Shown here: one piece after another, positions 16,901-50,225 of the stretch
Layout of the letters: each line of letters starts with the position of its first letter
How positions within the stretch are numbered: position 1 is the stretch's first letter
Source: Eledone cirrhosa
Taxonomy: Eukaryota
Direction of reading: 5' to 3'
Assembly (NCBI GenBank): GCA_964016885.1
Contig: OZ024741.1
Location: 119,846,001 to 119,910,000 of the forward strand
DNA: 64,000 nucleotides
Notes under the pieces: model-generated
Told to the model about the DNA's origin: nothing
Seen by the model: the letters and a program-made list of their open reading frames with translations, nothing else
Database searches by the model: none
Made by a program: the position numbers and the translations under genes

Positions 16901-19887
16901 ATATATTGATATCTATATCTATATGTATATGTCGATATCTATATCTATATGTATATGTTGAGACCTATATCTCTATGTATATGTCGATCTCTATATCTAT
17001 ATGTATATGTTGTATATGTCGATATCTATATGCATATGTATATGTTGACATCTATATCTATATGTATATGTTGATATCTATATCTATATGTATATGATGA
17101 TATCTATATCTATATCTATATGTATATGTTGATATCTATATCTATATGTTGATATCTATATCTATATGTATATATCGATAATTACATCTATATCTATATT
17201 TATATATTGATATCTATTTCTATATCTATATGTATATGTTGATACCTATATCTATATGTATTTGTTGATATCTATATCTATATGTATATGTTGATATCTA
17301 TATCTATATCTATATGTATATGTCGATATCTATATCTATATGTATATGTTGATATCTATATCTATATGTATATGTTGATATCTATATCTATATATATATC
17401 TATATGTATATGTTGATATCTATATCTATATGTATATGTCGATATCTGTATCCATATCTATATCTATATTTATATGTCGATATCTATAACTATATGTGTA
17501 TGTTGATATCTATATGCATATGTTGATATATATATCTCTATGTATATGTATATGTCTATATCTATATCTATATGGATATGTCGATATCTATATCTATATG
17601 TATATGTCGATATTTATATCTATATGTTTATGTTGATATCTTTATCTATATGTATCTGTTGATATCTATATCCATATGCATATGTCAATATCTATATCTA
17701 TATGTATATGTCGATATCTATATCTATATGTATATGTTGATATCTATATGTATATGTATATGTTGATATCTATATGTATATGTATATGTTGATATCTATA
17801 TGTATATGAATATGTTGATATCTATATCTATATGTATATGTTGATATCTATATCTATATCTATATGTATATATTGATACCTATATTGATATGTATATATT
17901 GATATTTATATCTATATGTATATGTTGATATCTATAAGTATATGTCGATATCTATATTTTCATATCTATATCTGTATGTATATGTTGATAGCTATATCTA
18001 TATGTATACGTATATGTCGATATCTATATCTATATCTGTATGTTGATATCTATATCTATATGTATATGTTGATATCTATATTTATATCTATATGTGTATG
18101 TCGATATCTATATCTATATGTATATGTAGATATCTATATCTATATGTATATGTTGATACCTATATCTATATGTATATGTTTATATCTATATCTATATGTA
18201 TATCCACATGTCGCTATCCATATCTATATGTATATGTCGATTTCTATATTTATATGTCGATAGCTATATCTATATGTGTATGTAGATATCTATATGTATA
18301 TGTTGATATCTATATGTATATTTCGATATCTATATCTATATGTCGATAGCTATATCTATATGTGTATATTGATATCTATATCTATATGTATATGTCGATA
18401 TCTATATCTATACGTATATGTTGATATCTATATTTATATCTATATGTATATGTCGATATCTATATCTATATGTATATGTTGATATCTATATTTATATGTA
18501 TATGTTGATATATATATCTATATGTATATGTATATGTCGATATCTATAACTATATGTATATATCGATATCTATATCTATATCTATATCTATATCTATATG
18601 TTGATATCTATATCTATATATATATGTATATGTCGATATCTATATGTGTATGTTGATATATATATCAATATGTATCTGTTGATATCTATATCTATATGCA
18701 TATGTCGATATCTATATCTATATGTATATGTCGATATCTATAACTATATGTATATGTCGATATCTATATCTATATCTATATGTATATGTCGATATCTATA
18801 TCTATATATATATATGTTTATGTCGATATCTATATCTCTATGTATATGTCGATATCTACATCTATATGTATATGTTGATATCTATATGTATATGTATATG
18901 TCGATATCTATATCTATATATCGATACCTATATCTATATGTGTATGTTGATATCTATATCTATATGTATATATCAATATCTATATCTATATGTATATATC
19001 GATATCTATATCTATATGTATATATCGATATCTGTATCTATATCTATATGTATATGTCGATATCTATATGTATATGTTGATATATATATCTATATGTCTA
19101 TGTCGATATATATATCTATATGGATATGTCGATATCTGTATCTATATGTATATGTCGATATCTATATCTATATGCATATGTCGATATCTATAACTATATG
19201 TATCTGTTGATATCTATATCTATATGCATATGTCGATATCTATATCTATATGTATATGTCGATATCTATATCTATATGTATATGTCGATATCTATATATC
19301 TACGTGTATGTCGATATCTATATATATATGTATATGTAGATATCTATATCTCTGTGTATATGTTGATATCTATATCTATATGTATATGTTGATATCTATA
19401 TGTATATGTTGATATATATATCTATATGTCTATGTCGATATATATATCTATATGGATATGTCGATATCTGTATCTATATGTATATGTCGATATCTATATC
19501 TATATGCATATGTCGATATCTATAACTATATGTATCTGTTGATATCTATATCTATATGCATATGTCGATATCTATATCTATATGTATATGTCGATATCTA
19601 TATCTATATGTATATGTCGATATCTATATATCTACGTGTATGTCGATATCTATATATATATGTATATGTAGATATCTATATCTCTGTGTATATGTTGATA
19701 TCTATATCTATATGTATATGTTGATATCTATATGTATATGTTGATATATATATCTATATGTCTATGTCTATGTCGATATCTATATCTCTATGTGTACGTT
19801 TATATCTATATCTATATGTATATGTCGATATCTATATGTATATGTCGATATCTTTATCTATATCTATATCTATATGTCGATATCTAT

Positions 19888-23584: not shown

Positions 23585-23614
<30 letters not shown>

Positions 23615-23626
23615 GTTATTGTTATT

Positions 23627-26600
23627 CCTTGAATCTCAGTCATTGATGTTGGTTAACTGGAAAGTCCGTTGGATTGAATATCAAGCCACTACCTGCAGCC
23701 TCAGATATTCAGGACGTATCGGAGGGTTCTTGCTGTTCCAAGCAAGCATGCCTTTTGAAGCGTTCCAAAAAGCGTGAAGGGGCCGATTTTCTTTAACCAT
23801 CCCTGGAAACTTTTGGAGATAGTCCCCAGTGCGCCTATGACAATCGGGATCACTTTGACTTCATGGCAGTTCCAAATCCTTTTCACCTCCCACTTTAGGT
23901 CCTGGTATCGGTTAATTTTCTCCCTCTCCTTCTCTTGCACTCTCGTGTCGAACGGGCAGGCCACATCCACAATCAGGCACGATCTTTTTTCTTTGTCCAC
24001 AACCACCAGGTCAGGTCTATTGTGTTCCAGTTTTTTGTCCGTCTGTATCCTAAAATCCCACAGCACCTTCACCTGATTGTTCTCCATCACCGCCTCTGGC
24101 CTATGCTCATACCATTTCTCAGAATGTGGTAGATTGTTTACTTTGCACAGGTGCCAGTGGATCACCCGGCCCATCACATCGTGTCTCCAGCCCTTATAGT
24201 GGGTCTGGGCTAGGTGTTTACACTCGGACACAATGTGAGCCACAGTCTCCTCTCTCCACAGATCCTGCACAGTGGGCTGGCCTCCTCCTTGTAGATATGG
24301 TGCTTCAACCACTTCGTTTTGAGGGCCTGCTCCTGCGCAGCCATTAGCATTCCTTCTGTAGCCTTTTTGAGGTCTCCTCTTCTCAACCAGTTCCATGTCT
24401 GTGGATCTCTAAATTCAGTTTTCTCAAAGAAGGTACTATGAAGGGGTTTTCCCTTAAGGCTGCTCTTCCTCCTTGATGTTATTTCCTCCCTGGACATCCC
24501 CTGGCCTACTGTCCCCTCCTTCAGTACAGCTCTGAGCATTGGCTCCTTACTATAGGTCACGTATTTGTATAGGTTGTTTTTCTCCATCTGAACACAGTCC
24601 TCTATGCTGATAAGACCTCTTCCACCCTCAGATCTCCTTAGGTAGAGTCTATCGACATCACTCCTCTTGTGGAACATGTTGTAGATAGTCAATAGCTTCC
24701 CAGTCTTCCTATCCATTTCTTTCTGTTCAGCAACATTCCATCTCAGAATTCCCGCACTGTACCTAATAATAGACACAGCTCGGGAATTTACTGCGCTTAT
24801 GGCATTTCTGCTGTTCAGATGTGACTTCAATACGCTCCTTACTCTCCGAATGTATTCAGTTCTTAATAATTCCTTCATTTTTTTGTTCTTTATGCCATCA
24901 GCCTCCAGAACGCCCAAATACTTGTATCCTTCCTCAGAGTCAATTTCCTTTATCATCTCACCTGTTGGTATCTGGATCCCGTTACTTCTGCTCAACCTAC
25001 CCCTCTTCATCACAATGACTCTACATTTACCAATACCAAACTGCATACATATATCACTGCTGAAAATACGGACAGTGTCAACAAGCACATCCAACTCCTT
25101 CTCACTTTTCCCGAAGAGCTTAAGACCGTCCATGAAGAGGAGGTGATTGATGGTAAGCTCTCCCCTTCCCAACTTGTATCCTGCTCTCACTTTTCGCAGC
25201 ATAATGGTCAAGGGCATCAGGGCAAGGACAAACAACAGAGGGGACAGGCTATCTCCCTGGAAGATACCTCTCTTGATCTTCACGCTTCCCAAGGATACTC
25301 CAGTTGATGTCAACTCTGTCTCCCAGGACCCCATACTCCTGCCTAGCAACTGTCTGATGTTATCCGCCACCCTGAAGATCTCCAGGCTTTTGGTGATCCA
25401 GGAATGAGGCACCATGTCAAATGCCTTTCTGTAGTCTATCCATCCCATGGCAAGATCAGTGTGTCTCCTCCTGCAATTCCCCATTACCATCTTATCAATA
25501 AGCAACTGGTCCTTTGTACCACGTGACTTCTTTCGGCATCCTTTCTGTTCGTCCGGTAACAAGTTGTTTGTGTGGAGGTGATGGTAGATTTCCTCAGACA
25601 CAATGCTCGTCAACAGTTTCCACATTACGGGCAGACATGTGATAGGTCTATAGTTGGTAGCATCATTACCCTTGATTCGGTCTTTCATTATCAGAACTGT
25701 GGTACCTTTTGTCAACCACTCTGGCACCTCACCCGACACCAAGCAGTCATTGAACATGGCCGTCAGCTTCGGGTGGAGGGATGTTAGATGTTTAATCCAA
25801 TACCCCTGCACACCGTCTGGGCCTGGCGATTTCCAGTTGGTTAGTTTTTTGGCTTGTCCCTTAAGAGTTTCAACTGTGATACTCAAATCAGTCTGTTGCT
25901 GTGCCTGCTCACCGATCTCCCTCTGTACTGTCTCAATCCACCCTGCCTGGGCATTGTGTCTAACATCCTGCTCCCATATTCCTCTCCAGAATGTTTTAGT
26001 TTGCTCCGCCCCAGGGATCAAGTCGTTGCCTCTTTCTTTGCCCTCAAGCTGTCCAAACAGCATCTTCTGGTTGTTGTCGAACATGCGGTTCTGTTTATAC
26101 TGACTGACTCTGTTCTCGTATCGCCTGATTTTTGCACTCTTTGCTACAATGCGTTGCTTCAATTCCTCTATGATAATATTTAGCTTTTTACTCCTAGTTT
26201 TGTATTTTATTTCCAGTCTATTTTTAGTGCCTATGTTTTTTAGTGTCCCATTCAGTAGTGACTCAAGCTTTCCTATGTCATTTCTCATTTCCCCGATTTG
26301 CCCACTCAGTCGCTTCTTCCACCACGGCTCTGCTCTTTCTTGTCTGTTGTTTCCTCTCGCTTTTATACCAAGTAGTTTCCTCACCGTATTTGCTGTTGCT
26401 CTGAGGATATTGATGCACTGGTGAAGGCTCCTCGCCTCAAGGTATGGGATGACTTTGTTTACCTTAGCTGTTGTTTCTTTTAACTTTTTCCTGTCTACAA
26501 ATCTTAGGTTCATAGGTCTCCCACTATCATTGTTCAATTCATCTACCACTAGATTTAGGATGTCAACCGAATCTTGTCCTAGCCCGTCAGCATTCATCTC

Positions 26601-27318
26601 CTCAGTGGCCGTATCTCTGTTCCAGGTATTATTTATCTCAGTATTCAGATCATTGTCTGCTTCGGGTGGTTCCTCCGTTCTCAGGACCTCCTCACCTTCA
26701 TTTCCCACCGGCTCGCTTGTCTGGCATACTACACCCGCCATCTCCAAGCCATTCTCTCTGCTCAGTTCCTCCAGTTCCAGCTCGCTTATCCACCCATTAG
26801 TTCTTATTACCCGAGCCTGCCCGGCCAAATTTTGTTCATCTAATTTAAATAAACCAATCTCGTTCCAGATGTTATGCATCCGTCTCCTGTAGCCCCTCTC
26901 CTTGGGGTTACTTTTCAGGTAGCATTGCATAACAGTTCTATTCAATTCTTTCGTCCAGTTGGTTCTGGCCCCTTTCCTTCTTCTCCTTCCTCCAACATCA
27001 GCAGTATTTGGTTGACAGTCAGGTTCCTGCTGCTGAGCCAGGGGGCACCTGTTGGGTGAGAGTCTGTCACATGACGTTCTAGTCTCCATTTCACCGTTAT
27101 TCGAACTGTTTATGTTCGATATTTAAACACTCTTATCGAGGATTGGCGAATGTATGTTTACATAGCCATCTGTGGGTCCGCCATCCCACTTGGCCCTTGT
27201 GTGGCATTATCACCACGCTGTATACGAACACACATAAACAAACAAACACACAGGCAGAAAGGGCCCCAGAAATGAATAAGCATAAGTTTCATTGTAATGT
27301 AGTGTTCGAATGTCTGAC
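23627..27318 (-). mobile_element. R4/Dong-like RLE non-LTR retrotransposon family A, copy 1 (short 5' end, defective)
   Basis: Single long ORF with RT + CCHC + PD-(D/E)xK domains, flanked by (TAA)n. (TAA)n targeting is the established behaviour of Dong elements (R4 clade). Confidence 0.9.
23701..27089 (-). pseudogene. R4-A RT/RLE polyprotein, copy 1: 4-bp deletion frameshift in TC run at ~24250 and catalytic FMDD changed to FMDG
   Basis: Comparison with the intact 1130-aa copy at 50312-53704. Confidence 0.9.
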
Positions 27319-27353
<35 letters not shown>

Positions 27354-27365
27354 GTTATTGTTATT

Positions 27366-30300
27366 CCTTGAATCTCAGTCATTCATGTTGGTTAACTGGA
27401 AAGTCCGTTGGATTGAATATCAAGCCACTACCTGCAGCCTCAGATATTCAGGACGTATCGGAGGGTTCTTGCTGTTCCAAGCAAGCATGCCTTTTGAAGC
27501 GTTCCAAAAAGCATGAAGGGGCCGATTTTCTTTAACCATCCCTGGAAACCTTTGGAGATAGTCCCCAGTGCGCCTATGACAATCGGGATCACTTTGACTT
27601 CATGGCAGTTCCAAATCCTTTTCACCTCCCACTTTAGGTCCTGGTATCGGTTAATTTTCTTCCTCTCCTTCTCTTGCACTCTCGTGTCGAACGGGCAGGC
27701 CACATCCACAATCAGGCACGATCTTTTTTCTTTGTCCATAACCACCAGGTCAGGTCTATTGTGTTCCAGTTTTTTGTCCGTCTGTATCCTAAAATCCCAC
27801 AGCACCTTCACCTGACTGTTCTCCATCACCGCCTCTGGCCTATGCTCATACCATTTCTTAGAATGTGGTAGATTGTTTACTTTGCACAGGTGCCAGTGGA
27901 TCACCCTGCCCATCACATCGTGTCTCCAGCCCTTATAGTGGGTCTGGGCTAGGTGTTTACACTCGGACACAATGTGAGCCACAGTCTCCTCTCTCTCTCC
28001 ACAGATCCTGCACAGTGGGCTAGCCTCCTCCTTGTAGATATGGTGCTTCAACCACTTCGTTTTGAGGGCCTGCTCCTGCGCAGCCATTAGCATTCCTTCT
28101 GTAGCCTTTTTGAGGTCTCCTCTTCTCAACCAGTTCCATGTCTGTGGATCTCTAAGTTCAGTTTTCTCAAAGAAGGTACTATGAAGGGATTTTCCCTTAA
28201 GGCTGCTCTTCCTCCTTGATGTTATTTCCTCCTTGGACATCCCCTGGCCTACTGTCCCCTCCTTCAGTACAGTTCTGAGCATTGGCTCCTTACTATAGGT
28301 CACGTATTTGTATAGGTTGTTTTTCTCCATCTGAACACAGTCCTCTATGCTGATAAGACCTCTTCCACCCTCAGATCTCCTTAGGTAGAGTCTATCGACA
28401 TCACTCCTCTTGTGGAACATGTTGTAGATAGTCAATAGCTTCCTAGTCTTCCTATCCATTTCTTTTTGTTCAGCAACATTCCATCTCAGAATTCCCGCAC
28501 TGTACCTAATAATAGACACAGCTCGGGAATTTACTGCGCTTATGGCATTTCTGCTGTTCAGATGTGACTTCAATACGCTCCTTACTCTCCGAATGTATTC
28601 AGTTCTTAACAATTCCTTCATTTTTTTGTTCTTTATGCCATCAGCCTCCAGAACGCCCAAATACTTGTATCCTTCCTCAGAGTCAATTTCCTTTATCATC
28701 TCACCTGTTGGTATCTGGATCCCGTTACTTCTGCTCAACCTACCCCTCTTCATCACAATGACTCCACATTTACCAATACCAAACTGCATACATATATCAC
28801 TGCTGAAAATACGGACAGTGTCAACAAGCACATCCAACTCCTTCTCACTTTTCCCGAAGAGCTTAAGATCGTCCATGAAGAGGAGGTGATTGATGGTAAG
28901 CTCTCCCCTTCCCAACTTGTATCCTGCTCTCACTTTTCGCAGCATAATGGTCAAGGGCATCAGGGCAAGGACAAACAACAGAGGGGACAGGCTATCTCCC
29001 TGGAAGATACCTCTCTTGATCTTCACGCTTCCCAAGGATACTCCAGTTGATGTCAACTCTGTCTCCCAGGACCCCATACTCCTGCCCAGCAACTGTCTGA
29101 TGTTATCTGCCACCCTGAAGACCTCCAGGCTTTTGGTGATCCAGGAATGAGGCACCATGTCAAATGCCTTTCTGTAGTCTATCCATCCCATGGCAAGATC
29201 AGTGTGTCTCCTCCTGCAATTCCCCATTACCATCTTATCAATAAGCAACTGGTCCTTTGTACCACGTGACTTCTTTCGGCATCCTTTCTGTTCGTCCGGT
29301 AACAAGTTGTTTGTGTGGAGGTGATGGTAGATTTCCTCAGACACAATGCTCGTCAACAGTTTCCACATTACGGGCAGACATGTGATAGGTCTATAGTTGG
29401 TAACATCATTACCCTTGATTCGGTCTTTCATTATCAGAACTGTGGTACCTTTTGTCAACCACTCTGGCACCTCACCCGACACCAAGCAGTCATTGAACAT
29501 GGCCGTCAGCTTCGGGTGGAGGGATGTTAAATGTTTAATCCAATACCCCTGCACACCATCTGGGCCTGGTGATTTCCAGTTGGTTAGTTTTTTGGCTTGC
29601 CCCTTAAGAGTTTCAACTGTGATACTCAAATCAGTCTGTTGTTGTGCCTTCTCACCGATCTCCCTCTGTACTGTCTCAATCCACCCTGCCTGGGCATTGT
29701 GTCTAACATCCTGCTCCCATATTCCTCTCCAGAATGTTTTAGCTTGTTCCGCCCCAGGGATCAAGTCGTTGCCTCTTTCTTTCCCCTCAAGCTGTCCAAA
29801 CAGCATCTTCTGGTTGTTGTCGAACATGCGGTTCTGTTTATACTGACTGACTCTGTTCTCGTATCGCCTGATTTTGGCACTCTTTGCTACAATGCGTTGC
29901 TTCAATTCCTCTATGATAATATTTAGCTTTTTACTCCTAGTTTTGTATTTTATTTCCAGTCTATTTTTAGTGCCTATGTTTTTTAGTGTCCCATTCAGTA
30001 GTGACTCAAGCTTTCCTATGTCATTTCTCATTTCCCCGATTTGCCCACTCAGTCGCTTCTTTCACCACGGCTCTGCTCTTTCTTGTCTGTTGTTTCCTCT
30101 CGCTTTTATACCAAGTAGTTTCCTCACCGTATTTGCTGTTGCTTTGAGGATATTGTTGCACTGGTGAAGACTCCTCGCCTCAAGGTATGGGATGACTTTG
30201 TTTACCTTAGCTGTTGTTTCTTTTAACTTTTTCCTGTCTACAAATCTTAGGTTCATAGGTCTCCCACTATCATTGTTCAATTCATCTACCACTAGATTTA

Positions 30301-31912
30301 GGATGTCAACCGAATCTTGTCCTAGCCCGTCAGCATTCATCTCCTCAGTGGCCGTATCTCTGTTCCAGGTATTATTTATCTCAGTATTCAGATCATTGTC
30401 TGCTTCGGGTGGTTCCTCCGTTCTCAGGACCTCCTCACCTTCATTTCCCACCGGCTCGCTTGTCTGGCATACTACACCCGCCATCTCCAAGCCATTCTCT
30501 CTGCTCAGTTCCTCCAGTTCCAGCTCGCTTATCCACCCATTAGTTCTTATTACCCGAGCCTGCCCGGCCAATTTTTGTTCATCTAATTTAAATAAACCAA
30601 TCTCGTTCCAGATGTTATGCATCCGTCTCCTGTAGCCCCTCTCCTTGGGGTTACTTTTCAGGTAGCATTGCATAACAGTTCTATTCAATTCTTTCGTCCA
30701 GTTGGTTCTGGCCCCTTTCCTTCTTCTTCTTCCTCCAACATCAGCAGTATTTGGTTGACAGTCAGGTTCCTGCTGCTGAGCCAGGGGGCACCTGTTGGGT
30801 GAGAGTCTGTCACATGACTTCTAGTCTCCATTTCACCGTTATTCGAACTGTTTATGTTCGATATTTAAACACTCTTATCGAGGATTGGCGAATGTATGTT
30901 TACATAGCCATCTGTGGATCCGCCATCCCACTTGGCCCTTGTGTGGCATTATCACCACGCTGTATACGAACACACATAAACAAACAAACACACGGGCAGA
31001 AAGGGCCCCAAGAATGAATAAGCATAAGTTTCATTGTAATGTAGTATTCGAATGTCTGACTTAGTTTTTGTTTTTTAAGTTTTACTTTTTCCCCCTTCTT
31101 CTCTGTCCGTCCGCCTGCCTCTCTCTTCATTCTTATTTTCTTTACGTTTTTGGGGTTTCTTTTTTTGTTTTTGTTTTTCTCTGTTTGTTTTTCTCGTTTT
31201 TTGCTGTTGTTGCTGTGCTGCTTTGGTTTTGTTGTTTGTTTTTTCTTTTTTCTTTTGAGTCTATCTATATATTTTGATGCCTTCCTCTTTGTTAGTAGTA
31301 GGGATTCTATAATGTGGAAGTAGTAGCAGCCAGCAGGGAGAAGTGGGAGGCTGGCGGCGCTGGCGATACTGAGACAGTGGTGGTGGTGATGTCGATACCG
31401 AGGCAGTGGTGGCGGTGATGCGACCGTATTACTGTAGTGATGGTGCTGTAGCGGTGGCAGCAGCAGTGAAGGAGTCAAGGGGTGGTGGCGGCGGTGATGG
31501 GATAGTGGTGGTAATGATGGCCGTAGTGAGCGGTGGCGGTGAAGGTGAAAATGCTGTTGTGTTTAGTGTACACAGATGATGGGGTGGGTGGTGTATCTAG
31601 TTTCTGGTGTTGGTGAGTTTAGCTGTCCTATATAGTGTAGCCAGAGGAGAGGAGGGGGGGGGGGTTCTTCTTCTTCCATTTATAGCCATTTTTTTGGGGG
31701 GGATATACAGTGTACAATACAAAGTTGAATATTTGAATATTTGAGCCTTATACCAATATATTTTGGGTCCGAATTTTTTGGGGCTCAAGCCGGGTGCTTT
31801 ACGTAGCATTTGTACTAAGAGTTGTTATTTCACAAATGATTTAAATATGTTAAAAATTCAAAACTTACGGGAGCGATTTCATGACCTCCGTCACCTCGTG
31901 CGTCTTCTTCCC
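27366..31912 (-). mobile_element. R4-A copy 2, long form with ~850 bp extra 5' segment
   Basis: Near-identical to copy 5; 5' end (TAA)n|GGGAAGAAGACGCACG is the same as at 55089. Confidence 0.9.
27440..30831 (-). pseudogene. R4-A polyprotein, copy 2: 1-bp deletion just after the ATG (~30818) and TGG>TGA stop at ~30062; 863-aa RT/RLE part still open
   Basis: ORFs 30062..30688 and 27440..30031 are collinear with the intact copy. Confidence 0.88.
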
Positions 31913-32001
<89 letters not shown>

Positions 32002-32971: not shown

Positions 32972-33180
32972 GGCGACCTACGTAGTAAATCGTATCATCG
33001 TGAGCTCCGCAAAGGTTTGTTATTTCCGTTTGTTAAAAATTGTCATTTATGGAAAATTTTAATGTTAACTGTTTATAAGCGCACATACATTGTTTTCCGA
33101 AAAGGACACCCAAAAAGATTGGGGCCTTGTGCCCAAAATTTAAACTTTTATTATTATCAAAAAAAATTTCTTTGAAAAAA

Positions 33181-35220
33181 ATGGCTAATTCACCTCTGCA
33201 CGAAGCAGCTGAAAGCCTTCCTCACAAATTAACACCTCACACCGACACCACCATTGTAAATGTTACTACGTTTGCCAACACAAAAAAAATATCAGCACTA
33301 GCAATATTTTAAATTTGTCTCAGGCAGACATTCATTTCCCGCCATTACCAATGACTGCAGATGTTAAAGCCTCCACCACCACCACCACCGCGACAACAGA
33401 AACAAAAGAAGAAAAAAATAAATTAACTCGTGATGTCGAAATGAAATCAAGCAAAATGGACTCTTCCCCACCAAAGACGACTGACGTCACCACCACCACA
33501 ACTGAAACTAAAATTAATATTAACACAAATAACGATAGCAACAACAACAACAATGACATTATAAAACCGTTTCGCCAGAGTAGCAAAACAATTCGAAGCA
33601 TTTACGTTAACTCAGGAGGATTTAGAAAATGCCAAACAAATGGTAAAGAAAGATGGGTACAGGGTCAGCCTCACCCCCCTAACTAATAAAATGGAGCATC
33701 GGCGCCTATGCACCGTGTCGTATAGAACAATAAATGTAAAATCGCGCCGAGTGGAACGGGCATCCGAGTCCCAAATCCAAAAAGCTTTGGGACATGTGTG
33801 GGCAAGAAAAACCCACATCAGACGTGGGCAAAAGTATGGAACCGTGGACGTGTTCTTTGAAACACCAGAGGAGGCTAGAGAACACTCCATGGCCCCATTA
33901 AAAATTGACGACTTCACACTCGTCCCAAGCTATTGTGGCCAGAGACTCGTAAAGATTAGGGTGACCCACGTTCCACCGGCCATCGAAATTCCCTGGCTAA
34001 TAGCGGCCGTCCTCGCCGGCATCGAAGCCAACACGAAAATAATAGCAATAGCAAAAGAAAAGCAGGAAAACTGGTCCGGATCTGGGATGGAGCTCCTGAT
34101 CCAAGCGGACCAAAAAAGCATTGAGGAGATCCCAGAGGTAATAGACCTCACTGACGGCAGCCACCTCACGGTAATTGTCGAGGGCAGAAGACCTAGGTGT
34201 GTCGTTTGTGGTGAAGGAACCCACCTAAGGGCTTTCTGCCCTCAGGCTAAAAGGTTGAGGCCACCTCTCCTACCCACCCCAGTGACACAACCATCAACAC
34301 CACCAGTAGCAGAGATGGCAGCAACAACTGTAGCAGCAACAACAGAAGCAACTATAACAGCAACAACCCCAGCAACAGTAGCAAAACCAACACCACCACC
34401 ACCACCAGCAAAACCAACACCACCACCACCCAACGCTTCAGAACTAGCACCAGCGCCTACACCATCCACCACGCCACAACCAAAACTAACGGCTGTGGAG
34501 GATTTTCCACTCTCCGGCCTATCACAACTGGAGACAGATTGTGACGACGAGGAGTGGGAAACGATATCCGGAAAAAAAAAGAAACCAAAAAAGAAAAAAT
34601 TCTCTTCCTTCCCCCTCCAAAAACAAAATACAGAGGGAAACAAATAAATTAAGAAACAAAAAAGTTAGGACAGATATGCCACTATCCACACCAGCATCAC
34701 CAACCCCATCAACCCAAACACCAACACCATCACCATCATTAACCCCAACACCACCATCACCTACACCACAAAAGTCACCAAAATGCGAAACAGAAACAAA
34801 CCCACAACAAATGCAAAAAAAACAAAACAACCAAAACGATACACACTACACAGCATTAAATTTGAACACGGGGTCGATAAAATAAAGTACTAGTAATGTA
34901 CTGGGTAATTGCTGGCCTTGTGCCTAAAGTAGAAACAATTAAATTTGAACAACAAGCAATTATTACACTACATCCAACACAACACCAGCATCACAGAAAA
35001 AGACTACACAACAACCCCAAAATTCACACCACCTCCACACATACAAATCACTCGCATCACACAGAAAACGTACATGACACTAAAACAAAAATTCCCCAAA
35101 GACATCGGAGACTTCCGACAAGCACTCTCCAGGAGGATTTATAAGGACATCCTTCCTGAGGAGGCCACAAGCAGTGAAAAGGATGGAAAAACCGTCCTTC
35201 CCCTACGAGAAGTAAGGTAA
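33181..35220 (+). pseudogene. Tx1 copy 1 ORF1 (gag-like, CVVCGEGTHLRAFC knuckle, T/P-rich regions), frameshifted and interrupted by an insertion
   Basis: Pieces from ATG 33181, 33315, 33640, 34541 and 34945..35220; core and C-terminus are homologous to copy 2 ORF1. Confidence 0.8.
34869..34937 (+). mobile_element. 69-bp insertion (probable SINE 3' fragment) with 14-bp target-site duplication ATTAAATTTGAACA
   Basis: TSD at 34855-34868 and 34938-34951; related 29-mer on the minus strand at ~50139-50167. Confidence 0.8.
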
Positions 35221-35254
35221 GTGGTCTTTCCCATCTTTTCCACTCCTTTTCAAC

Positions 35255-38200
35255 GTGACCTCACTCAGAATAGGCAGAATAAATGCGCGTGGCTTGGGGT
35301 CGTCATGGAAGCAGGGCCACCTGCTCAACGACCTCAGGTCACTAAACATAGATGTAGTGGCCATCAGCGAGACCAGAATCTCCGAAGCACAGGCTTTCGC
35401 ACCGATCTTCGGCGGCTACCATGTGTACGCATCTCCCAGCCGTCCGGGATCGGGGGGAGGAGTTGCTGTGCTTTTTCGGAGAGGTTTGGATCTTGCCATA
35501 CGGGCCATCTTCCTGGACCCAGAAGGTAAGTTGGTGGTGCTGGACGTGACCAGCGGAGACGGGCAAGCTTTCAGGTTAGTGGCCGTCTATGCCCCGACAG
35601 GAGCAGGGCGGCCTGATTTCTTCCGGTGTCTGGAGACCTTTCTTGGAACGTCCCGCTCTTTAGTGTTAGTGGGCGACTGGAACGGGATCTTAGATGCACG
35701 CTGGGATTGTGTGGGATTAGTGGATAGGGAAGGAGGGTGCAAGAGTCTCACCAACCTGCTCAGACGTTTTGAACTGTCTGACAGGTACCGAATGGATTTC
35801 CCGAATGTACCAATGTGGACTTGGACAAATCGCATAGGGTCATCCAGATCATATCTAGATAGAGTATTTTGTAGGGAAATAGATAGGTCTAGCATAGGCT
35901 GTCCACAATTCAAGATAGTCAGCTACACGGACCACAAATTCGTGATCTGTGTGCTTGACTTAGATAGGCTTCATAGACGAGGACCCGGCTACTGGAAGAT
36001 AAACGCGTCCTTACCAGCGCGCAAGGCCTACAGAGACCGGATTAGCGAACTAGTTAAGCGGGCGTTGACGGGGGCCATCGTCAACAACAAGTGGTGGTTT
36101 GCTCTGAAAAGAGCAATTAGAATAGAGTCCATTAGGTTTAGTAAGACTTTAGCAATAGAGAAAAATAGAGCAGAGGGAGTACTAGTTAGAAAATTAGATG
36201 AGGCGCTTAGCAAAGGCATCGCGACCGACGTACTTGCGGCGAAATTGGCCCTTGACCAATTCTTCAATGCAAAGCACGAAGGCTGCGTTGTCAGAGCTAG
36301 GGTGCGTGCTCTCAGACACGAGGGGACAAAAGCCGTTCAATGGACCCGAGTGGCGGAGGCGCGTCGTGGCAACAAAGCCACTATCCGGTCTTTGGTGGAC
36401 CACGATGGGCGCATGCTACTCGATCCCGGGCAAATGTGTGAAGCTTTTCAGCGACACTTCGCTCAACTGTTCGGGGGCAGTGGCGGGCCGGATCGAGGGA
36501 TGTGTCTACCTCGACGGACTGCCGCGGCTTTCGGCCACTGAGGCGGAGTGTTGCGAAAAGCCGATAACAACCGCTGAAGTACGGGATGCAATGACTAGTT
36601 GCACAAGGGGTAAATCGCCTGGTTTAGATGGTCTGCCCTATGAACTTTACGTACAAATGCCAAACTTGTTCGGAGGCCTCTTGGCGGACGTCTACTGCAA
36701 CTGGCAACAGAACGGGAGAATTCCCAGCTCTGTGAGCCGAGGAGCGGTGGCGCTGCTGAGAAAGAATCCGAACAAGGGGGATAACATAGATAATTTTAGG
36801 CCCATAATACTGCTAAACACAGAGTTCAAGATTTTGGCCAAGGTGCTAGCAAAGAGGTTGGCGCTTGTCGTTGGTGGTCTGGTGGGAGAGGCACAGACAT
36901 GCGCCATTCCCGACAGATCCATTCACGACAACCTCCACCTCATGCGATACATCGTAGAGAGGGTAGCTAGGGAACCTGGCACGGGTGGGTCTTTGATCAA
37001 TTTAGATCAGTCGAAAGCCTTCGATAGGGTCGACCATCGTTACCTAGCGGCAGTCCTGAGGGCGGCTGGCTTTGGGCCCGTCTTCAGAGGCTGGATCGCT
37101 GCCATGCACAGCGACATCTGCTCTGTAGTGAGAGTGAACGGTCACCTTTCGGAACCGTTCAACATCATGCGCTCGGTCCGCCAAGGCTGTCCCCTCTCGT
37201 CCCTATTGTACCTATTTGATTCTCGAGCCATTACTGCACAAACTGGAGACGTTGAGGGGCGTCCCGCGCGAACTAGGATGCGGAAGATCCGTGTCAGCAT
37301 ATGCCGACGATGTCACCGTAGTGGTGTCGAACGCTAAACACATCGAGGCGATCGGCACTACACTAAGAGAATACGAAGCGGTGACAGGAGCAATGATCAA
37401 CCAGGAAAAGTCAGTGGGCCTGCAGCTCGGCACCTGGAGAGGCAGGTCCATGCCGTCCAACAGCGTCGTCGGGCGCTGGACGGACGGACCGGTTAAATTG
37501 CTAGGGGTCTGGTTCGGTCCAGACCTCCAGACGGACAAAAACTGGGACGAGGTGACGAGCAGCGTGGCTTCTCTCACCCAGAAATGGGCCGAGAGGAAGC
37601 TATCCCTGAAAGGTCGAGCGGAGGTGGCTAACGCGTACATCGCGTCCGTCATCTACTACCGCCTGACCGTCGTACCTTGTCCTAAGCCCCGCCTGACTGC
37701 GCTGAAGCGTTTGCTCTTTCGCTTCTTGTGGAAGGGACGCGCTCCGATGGTCAGGCGGTTCATCTGTTGTCAACACCCGCTACGTGGAGGGCTGGGCATG
37801 CCGTGGCTGATGATGCGCAGACACGCGCTCAGGCTACGACATCTCCACCTCTTCCTCGACGGTGATCAGGTGTGGTCGCCGTTTGCTAGACACGTTTTTT
37901 CCCAGCTCGTCTCCTTGACGGAGCTGCAGTCCTGGGTCAAGCGAAGACCGAGAGGGAGCGCTTGGAGACTGGAATGTCTTCAGGCGCTCACAGCCCTCGA
38001 CCAATCGGGCAATGTGATCGGTGGAAACTCCACCTTGGCGTTCTATAGGGGATTAGTGGAGGGGAAGAGCGACGACGTACTTGGAGAAACTCTAGGCGTC
38101 GACGAAAATCAACTAGCCAATCTCTTCGGAAGGACTTTCGGGCCGGGGCCTATGGACAACTTCCAGAAATCCCTGGCCTGGCAGTGCTACCGGGGTGCTT

Positions 38201-38666
38201 TGCTAGTTCGGGATAAACTTTACAGGCATGGAGGTGCCGTCAGCCGGGCATGTCCGAGATGCGCACAGGGCGACGAAACCGTCCTGCACGCACTCGTCCA
38301 GTGTCCGAGCATTGCTGACTTGTGGGTTTATGTCGAACACCTGCTGTCACGTGTAGGACGGATCCAGCTATCAGCTGAGTCCATCGTGAGGATTGCCCCG
38401 CCTCTTCCTTTTGCCGGGAAGGGCAGGCAGTTTTTATCTGTCTGGTGGCCATGGCGAAAGAGATAGTATGGTGGACACGTTTGAAAGGGCTGAAGACGAG
38501 CACTTACCTCTTCGGTGATGCCCTGATTAACTTTTTCAAATTTCATCTGAAAAAGAAAATCAGGGTAGAGAGGGAAGTGCTCTCTTCCCAGCATTTTGTT
38601 GAAAGATGGGTGAGAGAAGCAAGTATGGCCCGAATGAATGGGCCTTCTCTGAGTATGTGTCTGTAA
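35255..38666 (+). pseudogene. Tx1 copy 1 ORF2 (APE-RT-CCHC), GTG start, frameshifts near 36500, 37212 and 38400
   Basis: Pieces align almost identically to intact ORF2 41282..44701. Confidence 0.9.
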
Positions 38667-39145
38667 ATTAAAGGTGGAAAACTGGGAGAGGGCACTTGCC
38701 CTGGTGGTCAGGGCCACTGTGGTCTTTTAATGGGCTTTCTCCACAAATGTCCCTCGGAAGTCTCCCCCCTATTGGGGAATTTTTCTTTGTTATTTTATTT
38801 CATCCGGTGTTTTTTTTTACACGCAGAAATGCCCATTTGTACCGTCCTGTATTGTCCTGTACTGTCCTTAATGTCTACTTTATGTAAACCCTTGTGGTTA
38901 ATAAAGAAAACATTATTATTATTATTATTGAATGCTATGGTTGACGGAGGCTCGGCTCTGTAAGGTATTATAAATTTTGAACGCTATAACAATTGTAAAT
39001 TGTTTAAAACTTTAACGAACTTGTAGACAAAAACACCCTCCTCCTCGTGAGAGGGGTCTTTCTGCCCGTTATTTGGCCCTTCGGGGTTAAATAACTGTAT
39101 ATTGGGGTTTTGTACCCAATATTTATTTTAAACAAAAAAATCAAC

Positions 39146-41246
39146 ATGGCTACGAAAAAGAATTTGCATAGGTCACTCCCACTCATTCCGTCTTCTTCTT
39201 CCTCAATCATCACTACAGAAGAGAGAAGATTGTCTCTCTCCCTCCCTTCTTTAAATGTGTCTCTCTCCCTCCCTTCTCTTTCGCAAGCGACGAAAGAAAA
39301 GAAAAGTCTCGTGCAAAGCGTGCAAGGTTTCTCCACGACGACGACGACAGCGACTAAACAAGTGTGCGGGAAATACGAAAACCCAGTTCATTCGTCTGAC
39401 GTCAGGAATAATAGCAGTAGCAGCCGTAATAACAACAGCAACAGTGACAATGAAAACAACAGTAGCAGCCGCAACAGCATCACCAGCAGCATAAACAATA
39501 ACAGCATTAGCAGCAGCAACACCAACAACAACCACAGCAACAGCGGCGAAGGCAGTAGTCGTAGTACCTGCAGCAACAACAAAAGTAACAGCAGCTCTGA
39601 CGACAACAACAACAACAGCAGCAAAGAAAAACCAATCTCATTTGCAGGTATTGCGAAAAACTTGGAAACAATCCTCATAACAAATGAGGAATTAGAGGAA
39701 GCGAAGAAGATGGTGACAAAGAATGGACACCGAGCAATCTGCAAGGCAGCGGAAACATTTTTCGAAACCCAACAGCACTGTACGGTCACGTACCGTACAG
39801 TAAGTACAAAATCCCGTAGGGTGGAAAGAGCCACAGAGGCCCAAATACAAAAAGCCTTGGGGTCTGTGTGGCAGCGGAAAACGCACATCACCCGAGGCAA
39901 AAAATATGCCACCGTAGACGTACTTTTTGCCACACCCCAGGAGGCAAAGGCCCAATCCGTAGTGACCCTAAGGAGCGAGGAAATGGTGTTGGTGCCCTCC
40001 TACTGCGGGCAAAAAATTGTGAGGGTCAAACTGACCCACGTCCCCCCCCGGAATGGCCCCTCTTGGCTGGCCGCGTCTGTCCTCGTCGGAATGGAGGACA
40101 AAACAACTGTACTGCAAGTACAGAAAAAAGTAAGAGAAGATTGGGTCGGCACCTCCATTGAGATGCTAATCCAAACCAACCAGGAGTGCATCGAAGCTAT
40201 CCCGGATGTGATAGACTTCGATAACGGCACTCAACTGCCCATAAGTGTTGAGGGCAAACGCCCGAAATGCTTTCGCTGTGGATCGAAGACTCACCTCAGG
40301 GCCTTCTGCAACGAGAAGACCCTGAGAAAGGAGAAAACCCCCCTCCTTCCGAAACCGGCTCCACGGCTACCAGCAACAGGACAAGCGGCAACCAGGAACG
40401 ATAGGTCCGTGGCACCCATACCCACGCCACGGAAATCAAAAACAGCAGCAGCAGTGGAAATATTAACAACAACAACAGCAATACCAAATGCAGCTGCAAC
40501 AGAGACTCCAGTGCAAACATCACCAACAACAACAAGTGAAAGAGTGGAGCTGGTACCCCTCCCCGACCTCACAGAATCAGACATGGAGTGTGAGGTGGGA
40601 GAGGGATGGCAAAAGGTCGTAAGAAGGCACAAACGCAGAAGCAGCGCATCGTCGCCTTTGAAAAGGGAGGAAAGAAATGAGAAAAGGGTAAAGTCTACTG
40701 CAAAGAGACCCACAGCAGCAACACCACCAACACCATCACCACCCACACTAGCACCACCATCCCCACCGGCGACAACCCCACCGCCAACAACACCTTCAAC
40801 ACCACCACCACAAGCACCAACATCGCAAACACAACAACAAAACACACACACCCAGCAACAACGACAAGAAAATAGCAGAACCACACCGCACCCCAGAAAA
40901 AAAATGCACGGCAATAAATACACACAACAAGAAACTAATGACTTACATAATTGAACACATAGACATTTCACAACACGACTACATAATACCAGCACCAATC
41001 AAAACGCCAACTAACATAAGACTGCTAAAAATAGCACAGAAACAATACACAAACATTAAAACGAAATTCCCCAACGCAGTTGGTGATTTCAGGGACCTAG
41101 GAGGAACTATCAATCGAAGAGTATATTCAGACATTCTCTTAGAAGAGCCGACGACCAGCCGAAGGGACGATTCAACGGTCCCTTCACCAGACGATCAAGT
41201 GAAAAAGGATGTAAAAACCATCCCTCCTCTACGAAAAGTACGGTAA
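39146..41246 (+). CDS. Tx1 copy 2 ORF1 (gag-like nucleic-acid-binding protein, CFRCGSKTHLRAFC), with one apparent frameshift at ~40.9 kb
   Basis: ORF from ATG 39146 to 40954 plus 40938..41246, whose end (KTIPPLRKVR*) matches copy 1 (KTVLPLREVR*). Confidence 0.75.
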
Positions 41247-41281
41247 GTGGTCTTTCCCATCTTTTCCACTCTATTTTAAAC

Positions 41282-44200
41282 ATGACCTCACTCAGAATAG
41301 GCAGCATAAATGCGCGTGGCTTGGGGTCGTCATGGAAGCAGGGTCACCTGCTCAACGACCTCAGGTCACTAAACATAGATGTAGTGGCCATCAGCGAGAC
41401 CAGAATCTCCGAAGCACAGGCCTTCGCACCGATCTTTGGCGGCTACGATGTGTACGCATCTCCCAGCCGTCCTGGATCGGGGGGAGGAGTTGCTGTGCTT
41501 TTTCGGAGAGGTTTGGATCTCGCCATACGGGCCATCTTCCTGGACCCAGAGGGTAAGCTGGTGGTGCTGGACGTGACCAGCGGAGACGGGCAAGCTTTCA
41601 GGCTAGTGGCCGTCTATGCCCCGACAGGAGCAGGGCGGCCTGATTTCTTCCAGCGTCTGGAGACCTTTCTTGGAACGTCCCGCTCTTTAGTGTTAGTGGG
41701 CGACTGGAACGGGATCTTAGATGCACGCTGGGATTGTGTGGGATTAGTGGATAGGGAAGGAGGGTGCAAGAGTCTCACCAACCTGCTCAGACGTTTTGAA
41801 CTGTCTGACAGGTACCGAATGGATTTCCCGAATGTACCAATGTGGACTTGGACAAATCGCATAGGGTCATCCAGATCATATCTAGATAGAGTATTTTGTA
41901 GGGAAATAGATAGGTCTAGCATAGGCTGTCCACAATTCAAGATAGTCAGCTACACGGACCACAAATTCGGGATCTGTGTGCTTGACTTAGATAGGCTTCA
42001 TAGGCGAGGACCCGGCTACTGGAAGCTAAACGCGTCCTTACCAGCGCGCAAGGCCTACAGAGACCGGATTAGCGAACTAGTTAAGCGGGCGTTGACGGGG
42101 GCCATCGTCAACAACAAGTGGTGGTTTGCTCTGAAAAGAACAATTAGAATAGAGTCCATTAGGTTTAGTAAGACTTTAGCAATAGAGCAACATAGAGCAG
42201 AGGGAGAACTAGTTAGAAAATTAGATGAGGCGCTTAGCAAAGGCATCGCGACCGACGTACTTGCGGCGAAATTGGCCCTTGATCAATTCTTCAATGCAAA
42301 GCACGAAGGCTGCGTTGTCAGAGCAAGGGTGCGTGCTCTCAGACACGAGGGGACGAAAGCCGTTCAATGGGCCCGAGTGGCGGAGGCGCGTCGTGACAAC
42401 AAAGCTACGATCCGGTCTTTGGTGGACCACGACGAGCGCATGCTACTCGATCCCGGGCAAATGTGTGAAGCTTTTCAGCGACACTTCGCTCAGCTGTTCG
42501 GGGGCAGCGGTGGGCCGGGTCGAGGGATGGACTTTAGTGTCTACCTCGACGGACTGCCGCGGCTCTCGGCCACTGAGGCGAAGTGTTGCGAAAAGCCGAT
42601 AACAGCCGCTGAAGTAAGGGAGGCAATGACTGGCTGCACAAGGGGTAAATCGCCTGGTTTGGATGGTCAGCCCTATGAACTTTACGTACAGATGCCAGAC
42701 TTGTTCGGAGGCCTCTTGGCGGACGTCTACTGCAACTGGCAACAGAACGGGAGAATTCCCAGTTCTGTGAGCCGAGGAGCGGTGGCACTGCTGAGAAAGG
42801 ATCCGAACAAGGGGGATAACATAGATAATTTCCGGCCCATAACTCTGCTAAACACAGAGTTCAAGATTTTGGCCAAGGTGCTAACAAAGAGGTTGGCGCT
42901 TGTCGTTGGTGGTCTGGTGGGAGAGGCGCAGACATGCGCCATTCCCGACAGATCCATCCACGACAACCTCCACCTCATGCGATACATCGTAGAGAGGGTA
43001 ACTAAGGAACCTGGCACGGGTGGGTCCTTGATCAATTTAGATCAGTCGAAAGCTTTCGATAGGGTCGACCATCGTTACCTAGCGGCAGTCCTGAGAGCGG
43101 CTGGCTTTGGGCCCGTCTTCAGAGGCTGGATCGCTGCCATGCACAGCGACATCTGCTCTGTGGTGAGAGTGAACGGTCACCTGTCGGAACCGTTCAACAT
43201 CATGCGCTCGGTCCGCCAAGGATGTCCCCTCTCGTCCCTCTTGTACGTATTGACTCTCGAGCCATTATTGCACAAACTGGAGACGTTGAGGGGTGTCCCG
43301 CGCGAACTAGGATGCGGAAGATCCGTGTCAGCATATGCCGACGATGTCACCGTAGTGGTGTCGAACGCCAAACACATCGAGGCGATCGGCACTACACTAA
43401 GAGAATACGAAGCGGTGACAGGAGCAATGATCAACCAGGAAAAGTCAGTGGGCCTGCAGCTCGGCACCTGGAGAGGCAGGTCCATGCCGTCCAACAACGT
43501 CGTCGGACGCTGGACGGACGGACCGGTTAAATTGCTAGGTGTCTGGTTCGGTCCGGACCTCCAGACGGACAAAAACTGGGACGAGGTGACGAGCAGGGTG
43601 GCTTCTCTCACCCAGAATTGGGCGGAGAGGAAGCTATCCCTGAAAGGTCGAGCGGAGGTGGCTAACGCGTACATCGCGTCTGTCATCTGCTACCGCCTGA
43701 CCGCCGTACCTTGTCCTAAGTCTCGCCTGACTGCGCTGGAGCGTTTGCTCTTTCGCTTTTTGTGGAAGGGACGCGCTCCGATGGTCAGGCGGTCCATCTG
43801 TTGTCAATACCCGCTACGTGGAGGGCTGGGCATGCCGTGGCTGATGATGCGCAGGCACGCGCTCAGGCTACGACATCTCCACCTCTTCCTCGACGGTGAT
43901 CAGGTGTGGTCGCCATTTGCTAGACGTGTATTTCCCCACCTCGTTTCCTTGACGGAGCTGCAATCCTGGGTCAAGCGAAGACCGAGAGGGAGCGCCTGGA
44001 GACTGGAATGTCTTCAGGCGCTCACAGCCCTCGACCAATCGGGCAATGTGATCGGTGGAAACTCCACCTCGGCGTTCTATAGAGGATTAGTGGAGGGGAA
44101 GAGCGACGACGTACTTGGGGAAACTCTAGGCGTCGACGAAAATCAACTAGCCAATCTCTTCGGAAGAACTTTCGGGCCAGGGCCTATAGACAACTTCCAG

Positions 44201-44701
44201 AAATCTCTGGCCTGGCAGTGCTACCGAGGAGCATTGCCAGTTCGGGATAAACTCTACAGGCATGGAGGTGCCGTCAGTCGGGCATGTCCGAGATGCGCGC
44301 AGGGCGACGAAACCGTCCTGCACGCACTCGTCCAGTGTCCGAAAATTGCTGACTTGTGGGTTTATGTCGAACACCTGCTGTCGCGTTTAGGACGGATCCG
44401 GCTATCATCTGAGTCCATCGTGAGGATTGCCCCGCCCTCCTCCTTTAGCCGGGAAGGGCAGGCAGTTTTTATCTGTCTGGTGGCCATGGCGAAAGAGATA
44501 GTATGGTGGACACGTTTGAAAGGGCTGAAGACGAGCACTTACCTCTTCGGTGATGCTCTGATTGACTTTTTCAAATTTCATCTGAAAAGGAAAATCAGAG
44601 TAGAGAGGGAAGTGCTCTCTTCCCAGCATTTTGTTGAAAGATGGGTGAGAGAAGCAAGAATGGCCCGAGTGAATGGGCCTACTCTGAGTATATATCTGTA
44701 A
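41282..44701 (+). CDS. Intact Tx1/L1-type ORF2, 1139 aa: APE endonuclease, RT, C-terminal CCHC
   Basis: INARGL, SET, GDWN, SYLD, TDH (APE); GYWKLN; KSPGLDG, DQSKAFD, RQGCPLS, YADD (RT); CPRC..ETVLHALVQC. Confidence 0.93.
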   Translation: MTSLRIGSINARGLGSSWKQGHLLNDLRSLNIDVVAISETRISEAQAFAPIFGGYDVYASPSRPGSGGGVAVLFRRGLDLAIRAIFLDPEGKLVVLDVTSGDGQAFRLVAVYAPTGAGRPDFFQRLETFLGTSRSLVLVGDWNGILDARWDCVGLVDREGGCKSLTNLLRRFELSDRYRMDFPNVPMWTWTNRIGSSRSYLDRVFCREIDRSSIGCPQFKIVSYTDHKFGICVLDLDRLHRRGPGYWKLNASLPARKAYRDRISELVKRALTGAIVNNKWWFALKRTIRIESIRFSKTLAIEQHRAEGELVRKLDEALSKGIATDVLAAKLALDQFFNAKHEGCVVRARVRALRHEGTKAVQWARVAEARRDNKATIRSLVDHDERMLLDPGQMCEAFQRHFAQLFGGSGGPGRGMDFSVYLDGLPRLSATEAKCCEKPITAAEVREAMTGCTRGKSPGLDGQPYELYVQMPDLFGGLLADVYCNWQQNGRIPSSVSRGAVALLRKDPNKGDNIDNFRPITLLNTEFKILAKVLTKRLALVVGGLVGEAQTCAIPDRSIHDNLHLMRYIVERVTKEPGTGGSLINLDQSKAFDRVDHRYLAAVLRAAGFGPVFRGWIAAMHSDICSVVRVNGHLSEPFNIMRSVRQGCPLSSLLYVLTLEPLLHKLETLRGVPRELGCGRSVSAYADDVTVVVSNAKHIEAIGTTLREYEAVTGAMINQEKSVGLQLGTWRGRSMPSNNVVGRWTDGPVKLLGVWFGPDLQTDKNWDEVTSRVASLTQNWAERKLSLKGRAEVANAYIASVICYRLTAVPCPKSRLTALERLLFRFLWKGRAPMVRRSICCQYPLRGGLGMPWLMMRRHALRLRHLHLFLDGDQVWSPFARRVFPHLVSLTELQSWVKRRPRGSAWRLECLQALTALDQSGNVIGGNSTSAFYRGLVEGKSDDVLGETLGVDENQLANLFGRTFGPGPIDNFQKSLAWQCYRGALPVRDKLYRHGGAVSRACPRCAQGDETVLHALVQCPKIADLWVYVEHLLSRLGRIRLSSESIVRIAPPSSFSREGQAVFICLVAMAKEIVWWTRLKGLKTSTYLFGDALIDFFKFHLKRKIRVEREVLSSQHFVERWVREARMARVNGPTLSIYL

Positions 44702-44983
44702 ATTAAAGGTGGAAAACTGGGAGAGGGCACTTGCCTTGGTGGTCAGGGTCATTGTGGCTTTTACTGGGCTTTCTCCACAAATGTCCCTCCGAAGTCTCCC
44801 CCCTATTGGGGAATTTTTCATTGTTATTTTTTGTTACATCCTCTGTTTTTGTTTTTTACACGCAGAAATGCCCATTTGTACCGTCCTGTATTGTCCTGCA
44901 CTGTCCTTAATGTCTACTTTATGTAAACCCTTGTGGTTAATAAAGAAATCATTATTATTATTATTATTATTATTGTTGTTATT

Positions 44984-50190: not shown

Positions 50191-50225
<35 letters not shown>

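Follow-up and report, generated by a model that had tools for sequence, protein, structure and literature searches.

Elements of the Dong/R4 clade in Bombyx mori have one open reading frame (ORF) with a reverse transcriptase (RT), a CCHC motif, and a PD..D endonuclease, and they are inserted in TAA repeats. In Bombyx Dong and R4, an HDV-like ribozyme cleaves at the 5' junction and thereby releases the RNA (PMC3774820), and elements with a restriction-like endonuclease (RLE) are described in general as dependent on host read-through transcription plus a 5' ribozyme (PMC3774820 and PMC3414825). Among mollusks, Dong/R4 elements are plentiful in cephalopods but nearly missing from the other groups (PMC10294476). 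For Octopus, 51 Dong-R4 and 80 L1-Tx1 families are listed, and both groups have recently been active in O. vulgaris (PMC13282606).

In the R2/R1 hybrid SIDEs of Drosophila, a 5' expression module is joined to another non-LTR group that shares the target array, and the combination has been kept for millions of years (PMC3414825). The RLE partner gives the 5' ribozyme and the APE partner gives the 3' end; the hybrids are non-autonomous and are 76 to 87% identical to their donors. Template jumps of R2 also occur in vivo (PMC3414825). Mammalian L1 families have recruited 5' untranslated regions (UTRs) and recombined among themselves (PMC3600994), and ORF1 has been transferred between the CR1 and L2 lineages (PMC4120745). 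In SVA_F1, a foreign 5' piece (i.e., MAST2 exon 1) became a fixed component of a subfamily through one ancestral event; the donor is a host gene, the pieces were joined by splicing, and the carrier is non-autonomous (PMC12593883).

The R4 family described here (i.e., R4-A) resembles the Bombyx clade in its ORF and its target. However, no HDV-like ribozyme was found in it by a search run without a positive control, and its 5' region of about 1,080 nt carries a leader that resembles those of Tx1 elements. If this leader came from a Tx1 element, which is a putative donor, the case would be like that of the SIDEs in joining a 5' expression module to another non-LTR group of the same target array, but in the reversed direction and with a full ORF kept. 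Unlike the L1 and CR1/L2 exchanges, which took place among APE-type two-ORF elements, the transfer would have been into an RLE element, and as in SVA_F1 one ancestral event would have fixed it. No report of a Tx1 or L1 leader on an R4/Dong element was found in the literature searched (most subscription papers and Repbase/Dfam lay outside its scope). The word "chimer" is absent from the searched text and supplement of PMC13282606. A Dong consensus is mentioned in PMC9115989, whose consulted passages contain no description of its 5' end, and an 18-mer of the R4-A 5' terminus does not occur in 6.8 million characters of the supplements of that paper, a partial search that provides no evidence. A long R4-A consensus may well sit unremarked in repeat databases.

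R4 and Tx1 elements in one target array

The window (i.e., the whole 64,000-nt stretch of Eledone cirrhosa DNA that was analyzed) begins with a 19.9-kb satellite, followed by an array of non-LTR elements with TTA runs as spacers. Since the satellite (26-bp period) lies on both sides of the elements (1 to 19887 and 55168 to 55228), the 35-kb array sits at the satellite edge, at a TTA run. The array contains an L2/CR1-like element, five R4-A copies or pieces, one element of a second R4 family (R4-B), and two Tx1 elements. Between 23586 and 55167, one microsatellite target is used with opposite polarity, all R4 copies being on the minus strand and both Tx1 elements on the plus strand.

R4-A occurs in a short form (copy 1; 23613 to 27318, minus strand) and in a long form (copy 2, 27352 to 31912, and copy 5, 50224 to 55089; both on the minus strand). 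The ORF and 3' end of copy 2 occupy 27352 to 30831 on the minus strand, with the ORF in pieces (30062 to 30820 and 27440 to 30061). Copy 5 retains an open frame of 1,141 codons (50312 to 53737) with RT, CCHC, and PD..D restriction-like endonuclease motifs (aa 609, 650, 939, and 1025), unlike the non-autonomous, internally deleted SIDE-type hybrids. Its protein contains the RVT_1 and zf-RVT domains and lacks Exo_endo_phos (APE). R4-A thus has the single ORF of the R4/Dong clade, with the RT followed by the CCHC motif and the PD..D endonuclease and with no APE domain. It also has the (TAA)n insertion site of that clade, as TTA runs bound all five R4-A copies and R4-B in a single polarity; the (TTA)29 run at the 5' end of copy 2 (31913 to 31999) reads (TAA)n on the element strand. 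Among 32 R4 relatives with 27 to 54% identity, none has an N terminus matching the R4-A extension described below.

R4-B (46085 to 50190, minus strand; 36% amino acid identity to R4-A) has a 5' region of 313 nt. The core 5' UTR of R4-A (30832 to 31060, minus strand) is common to the long and short copies. A motif of 28 to 30 nt is present in R4-A (30902 to 30929, 27160 to 27187, and 53775 to 53802) and in R4-B (49988 to 50017), always on the minus strand and about 70 to 110 nt upstream of the start codon. Its ends can pair, and it was matched in none of 100 shuffles; we regard it as a candidate for an element of this UTR that acts in the RNA or as a promoter. The 5' region of R4-B has this core motif and lacks the extension. 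The core UTRs of R4-A and R4-B did not fold better than shuffled sequences, and a search with strict and loose descriptors and Rfam, run without a positive control, detected no HDV-like ribozyme in R4-B or at either the long or the short end of R4-A (the loose descriptor fired on 9 to 26 of 40 shuffles). Twelve ATGs lie upstream of the R4-A ORF start. A GGGGYC..TGCCC word that the Tx1 leaders have in common with the core UTR of R4-A was dropped (p = 0.10 to 0.18). The 5' end of R4-B (50143 to 50167, minus strand) is like a SINE-like insert in the first Tx1 element (34893 to 34917, plus strand) at 23 of 25 nt, a level reached in 0 of 100 shuffles, and R4-B may therefore carry a foreign 5' piece of its own.

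The two Tx1 elements served as comparison elements. Tx1-1 (32972 to 38912, plus strand) has a leader (32972 to 33180), an ORF1 with a CCHC knuckle, and an APE-RT ORF2 in pieces. Tx1-2 (38930 to 44951, plus strand) has a leader (38930 to 39145), an ORF1, and an ORF2 with APE, RT, and zf-RVT domains.

The extension moves with R4-A as a unit

An extension of about 850 bp past the end of copy 1, which the sequence-only reading had described in copies 2 and 5, was recovered by self-BLAST. It spans 31063 to 31912 in copy 2 and 53936 to 55089 in copy 5 (both on the minus strand), where it is longer through a 326-bp tandem duplication (54274 to 54927). The duplicated unit comprises the last part of the leader together with the ATG and T/P-rich sequence; the units are 0.9% apart, and the arrangement recalls the tandem monomers of mouse L1 promoters. 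The extension begins with a 223-nt leader (31690 to 31912, minus strand) in which the conserved 5' terminus is rich in G, GCTC..AAG lies at about nt 39, the middle is AT-rich, and the ATG is preceded by an A-run. This leader is a putative internal Pol II promoter. It is followed by a low-complexity segment of 627 nt (31063 to 31689, minus strand) that starts at ATGGCTA and is C/A-rich (T/P codons) and then 59% A. As had been noted, its ATG frame is stop-interrupted, ending after 30 codons in copy 2 and 20 codons in copy 5. The junction TAA (31061 to 31063, minus strand) is held in common with the target run that borders copy 1, and the composition shifts sharply at this point, A-rich sequence giving way to balanced sequence. 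The definition of the boundary at 31063 comes from one truncated copy plus the composition, and the exact point of a capture may lie elsewhere.

Copies 2 and 5 have different neighbors on both sides, and the same 5' terminus of the extension occurs with other flanks in sequencing runs of organisms B and D. The extension has thus been transposing with R4-A in R4 polarity, as the sequence-only reading had proposed. Words from the extension were found in 15 of 19 sequencing runs, with half or more of the words in five runs. The reads of four of the 19 runs, all of DNA, were mapped on 30400 to 31933: X2 (organism B), X7 (organism D), X8 (organism E), and X17. X7 and X8 were the two runs used out of 10 (D to M) with a word share under 0.25. 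Statements on individual mapped sequences refer to 24 loose ends (30 letters each) and 24 pieces, beyond which there were 333 and 2,578 more.

In X7, the contig covering the ORF differs from R4-A at 17 of 407 nt (4.2%), two contigs (11 and 12) bridge the junction (31016 to 31115) with 1 and 4 differences, reaching 47 and 52 letters beyond it to the two sides, and the 5' terminus is the same, with the target repeat following it. The depths of the junction contigs are 36.7 and 19.3 (sum, 56), versus 84.9 for the ORF contig. The R4-A copies of the window differ by only 0.75 to 1.3% (copies 2 and 5, 0.75%; copy 1 versus either, 1.16 to 1.27%). Since the junction is present in organism D together with an ORF diverged by 4.2%, the long form is older than the copies in the window. 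An X8 contig over 31764 to 31900 shows 2 differences, the first part of the leader being nearly unchanged. No junction-bridging pieces of X2 or X8 are among the pieces considered. The summed X2 depth, which does not represent copy number, is 27,000 to 120,000 over the extension (outside skipped repeats) and 58,000 to 150,000 over the core UTR.

The short copies end at sites resembling the target: copy 1 is cut at a TAA, and copies 3 and 4 are cut at 2-nt microhomologies with the target. A further truncation at a TTA at 31852, i.e., 60 nt inside the leader, is represented by 461 reads of X17, a RAD-seq run in which counts follow cut sites and PCR copies and not copy number. Copy 1, which ends at the junction, is most likely a 5' truncation, and the long form is most likely the full-length element. 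The extension is hence the normal 5' end of a TAA-targeting multicopy Dong/R4 family and not a rare add-on. Several loose ends resemble, by eye, leader versions diverged by 80 to 85%, which may belong to subfamilies or to a donor family related to R4-A's source.

Resemblance of the extension to Tx1 leaders and ORF1

The 5' motifs quoted earlier for the extension and the Tx1 leaders are present, and ATGGCTA lies 223 nt (extension), 209 nt (Tx1-1), and 216 nt (Tx1-2) from the 5' ends, as claimed. In the 44 kb outside the satellite, ATGGCTA is preceded by an A-run at only 5 places, each of them in one of these leaders or in the copy 5 duplicate; an A-run with ATGGC is an ordinary invertebrate start context. 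The CCCAA(A)AT motif, which had been assigned to all three leaders, does not hold for Tx1-2, where CCCAATAT stands instead. Its spacing to the ATG is uneven across the three leaders (about -78, -49, and -31), and the pattern has 13 matches in the 44 kb. Within the window, the 9-mer TGACGGAGG is found in the extension and Tx1-2 only. This 9-mer is polymorphic: a large class (in X17, 8,627 reads, as RAD-seq again not a copy number; in X7, one contig) diverges at 31887, where other letters replace TGACGG, the source of the longest Tx1-2 match. A search of metagenome contigs with a 21-mer of the 5' end gave one match (L001; 57% GC; 23 nt in common with the window), which was rejected as chance.

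Alignment of the leaders gave results that depend on the scoring. When the first 190 nt without the ATG were compared with the two Tx1 leaders, lenient gaps gave z values of 4.0 and 4.6 (p about 0.001), and BLAST-like scoring gave p values of 0.58 and 0.30. Across 8 scoring settings, p was <0.05 in 4 for extension/Tx1-1, 6 for extension/Tx1-2, and 6 for Tx1-1/Tx1-2; with the first 32 nt dropped, the extension remained at this level in 4 of 8 (Tx1-1) and 3 of 8 (Tx1-2) settings. BLASTN produced no alignment between the extension and the neighboring Tx1 leaders. The number of three-way invariant columns (54) was close to that of shuffled sequences (51.9 ± 4.6; 21 of 60 shuffles as good). A hidden Markov model (HMM) built from the two Tx1 leaders did not find the extension at an E value of ≤10, but one Tx1 leader also misses the other by this approach (E = 1.3 and 0.49), and the two-leader HMM therefore has little or no power at such a distance.

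We also used a positional word test, in which 4-mers common to Tx1-1 and Tx1-2 at matching offsets were fixed without reference to the extension and then sought in it. When the ATG context was included, the extension contained 8 of 14 and 11 of 17 such words, levels that none of 4,146 control windows reached. Without the ATG, it contained 4 of 7, 5 of 8, and 7 of 10 words, which were equaled by 56, 26, and 0 of 16,668 overlapping controls and by 27, 17, and 0 of 3,708 AT-matched controls, respectively. The R4-A core and R4-B 5' ends contained 0 to 2 words, and the 5' end of the L2-like element contained 3 to 4. At word lengths of 5 and 6, the start-codon context carries almost all of the signal. 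In 30 pairwise comparisons of six 5' regions, with the ATG included, a p value of 0.004 was obtained only for extension/Tx1-1, extension/Tx1-2, and Tx1-1/Tx1-2. Among 2,196 windows, each Tx1 leader, self-matches aside, matched the extension leader best, by thin margins (60 versus 54 and 48.5 versus 46.5).

By these measures, the extension is about as similar to each Tx1 leader as the Tx1 leaders are to each other, which suggests a common plan with weak identity. The proposal of a Tx1-type leader on R4-A thus receives a mixed answer: the positional words are shared well above the controls, while the profile and strict-alignment tests are blank. A Tx1-type leader on R4-A is plausible but unproven at the level of sequence comparison.

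The 627-nt segment had also been described as a coding-like stub of ORF1, and here the composition agrees and the protein evidence does not. Of 800 windows scored for trinucleotide composition, the 6 nearest that do not overlap include 5 from the ORF1 regions of the two Tx1 elements, i.e., the segment is similar to a Tx1 tail in composition. However, no folded ORF1 core, CCHC zinc knuckle, or tail motif was found in any frame of the extension. Only 1 of 18 frame pairs had p <0.05 after local shuffling. A HMMER search with the Tx1 ORF1 core found 531 relatives; the best composition-corrected E value of the extension against the 150 that were compared was 9e-4, with 26% identity and an alignment running through the leader, and stronger scores appeared only with the composition correction off. 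The acidic-W-x-x-V-basic tail motif is absent from the extension, which scored -0.7 versus 34 to 44 for family members, and 94 of 458 control windows were as good. None of 7,121 candidates among longer proteins matched the ATG frame, which is weak evidence. The motif tests led us to discard two peptide likenesses (i.e., basic-PPLL after the ATG and EEG before a K-rich stretch). The best BLAST match of the middle part of the extension is an ACC-rich microsatellite at 56196 to 56440.

Origin of the extension

R4-A moves as a unit with its extension, has a fixed 5' terminus, and carried this arrangement before the copies in the window arose. For the source of the extension, the best explanation, to which we assign a probability of about 50%, is that it represents a standard 5' module of R4-A that was gained once, long ago, from a Tx1-type element. 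An ancestral R4-A would have entered a Tx1 ORF1 at a TAA on its A-rich sense strand; the (TAA)n polarity of R4 would place it in the same orientation as that Tx1, and at the junction a TAA indeed follows A-rich sequence, with an abrupt shift in composition. Alternatively, the R4 RT may have jumped onto a Tx1 RNA. Plain read-through of the array cannot make the fusion because the neighboring Tx1 elements point the other way. Transcription would then have started at the Tx1 internal promoter and continued through R4-A, and the R4 protein would have used the R4 3' end to prime the entire RNA into TAA runs. Having no job in cis, the coding part of Tx1 would have decayed to low-complexity remnants, and the promoter would have freed R4-A from read-through transcription and 5' self-cleavage (i.e., the Bombyx Dong route). 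Such a promoter would fill the need for RNA release, given that no HDV-like fold was found at the R4-A ends in the search made without a positive control. The donor would be a Tx1 subfamily other than the two in the window, and the short copies would be 5' truncations resolved at TA/TAA microhomologies.

The extension may instead be a long 5' UTR of R4-A's own that evolved an internal promoter in place and lengthened as ACC, AAC, and A-rich repeats expanded, its Tx1 likeness being convergence on host promoter words, AT-richness, and the start context; we consider this rather unlikely. Such an origin would agree with a family-wide and old extension, with the blank strict similarity tests and the absence of ORF1 homology, and with the ACC-rich microsatellite as the best match of the middle part. 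Moreover, the 5' primer of Bombyx Dong also begins with GCTCCC after TAA repeats (PMC3774820), and this word is thus not private to Tx1. However, a home-grown UTR must explain the equal leader length, the word order, and an identical ATGGCTA before a non-functional frame, and it must also account for R4-B, which has the same target and core motif without any of the extension, and for the sharp composition break at 31063. That break and the fixed 5' terminus would equally be expected if the module were foreign but not of Tx1 origin, i.e., a promoter and first coding stretch that were 5' transduced from another LINE clade (CR1/L2/I type) or a host gene and fixed like MAST2 in SVA_F1. The 3 to 4 test words in the L2-like 5' end point in this direction, as does the different foreign-looking 5' piece of R4-B, which suggests that R4 families take 5' sequence from several sources. 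We judge such a donor improbable: among the 5' ends compared, the two Tx1 leaders, which are the sole Tx1 references, match best, the nearest composition is that of the Tx1 ORF1 regions, and the ATG frame matches no longer protein (weak evidence).

By far the least probable is the version closest to the original proposal, in which the extension was acquired recently from a Tx1 neighbor in the same target array and the short copy is ancestral. Copy 1 is short and slightly further from copies 2 and 5 (1.16 to 1.27%) than they are from each other (0.75%), and TTA runs are common to both element types. However, the junction is bridged in organism D, where the ORF differs at 17 of 407 nt, and the leaders of the neighbors, which are only patchily alike, give no BLASTN alignment to the extension and run in the opposite direction; the bridged junction largely refutes this part of the proposal.

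With an old gain from a Tx1-type element as the preferred reading, R4-A might be, more tentatively, an autonomous multicopy octopod RLE element that runs on an internal promoter from a Tx1 sharing its microsatellite target, in place of the route of co-transcription plus ribozyme; this swap perhaps enabled Dong/R4 to spread far beyond transcribed arrays. If this is correct, an autonomous RLE family with an APE-clade internal promoter would mirror the R2/R1 hybrids. Such a family would show in concrete terms how an "ancient-type" element can free itself from its array, and it would supply a testable reason for the abundance of Dong/R4 in cephalopods. If convergence is correct, the extension would be an ordinary long 5' UTR, which would still be useful as a source of candidate promoter words common to unrelated LINEs.

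The Tx1 copies in the window show the same pattern of 5' exchange as the mammalian L1 families. Tx1-1 and Tx1-2 are 95.7% identical in ORF2 but 52% identical in the ORF1 core (amino acids), and their leaders are barely alignable; near-identity starts at the last ORF1 codons (35175 and 41200) and runs to the 3' end. From this alignment, we infer a 5'-module swap between Tx1 subfamilies and, with it, that Tx1 5' modules move in this genome. A word-index search with residues 150 to 450 of the Tx1-2 ORF1 passed none of 2,221 candidates, and the family was found by the HMMER search; no Tx1 ORF1 was confirmed among 511 candidates in viral contigs. The named relatives (five of ten proteins checked) are from Octopus sinensis, O. 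bimaculoides, and Argonauta hians. Pieces of the Tx1 ORF1 core are also fused to unrelated host-like domains in the gene models P0012, P0044, P0058, and P0108, three of which bear names of Octopus proteins; these fusions are either annotation artefacts or exonisation.

The ORF1 tail of Tx1-1 (34855 to 34951, plus strand) contains an insert of about 70 bp with a 14-nt direct repeat on both sides, which we take to resemble the 3' end of an octopus SINE with its target-site duplication. A word of the Tx1-1 leader (33123 to 33137, plus strand) also ends this SINE-like insert, at 34914, and is followed by short TTA repeats. The Tx1-2 leader region (38930 to 39152, plus strand) is predicted to form successive hairpins (z = -3.7), with a stability that 1 of 200 shuffles reached, while the other two leaders have no such folding.
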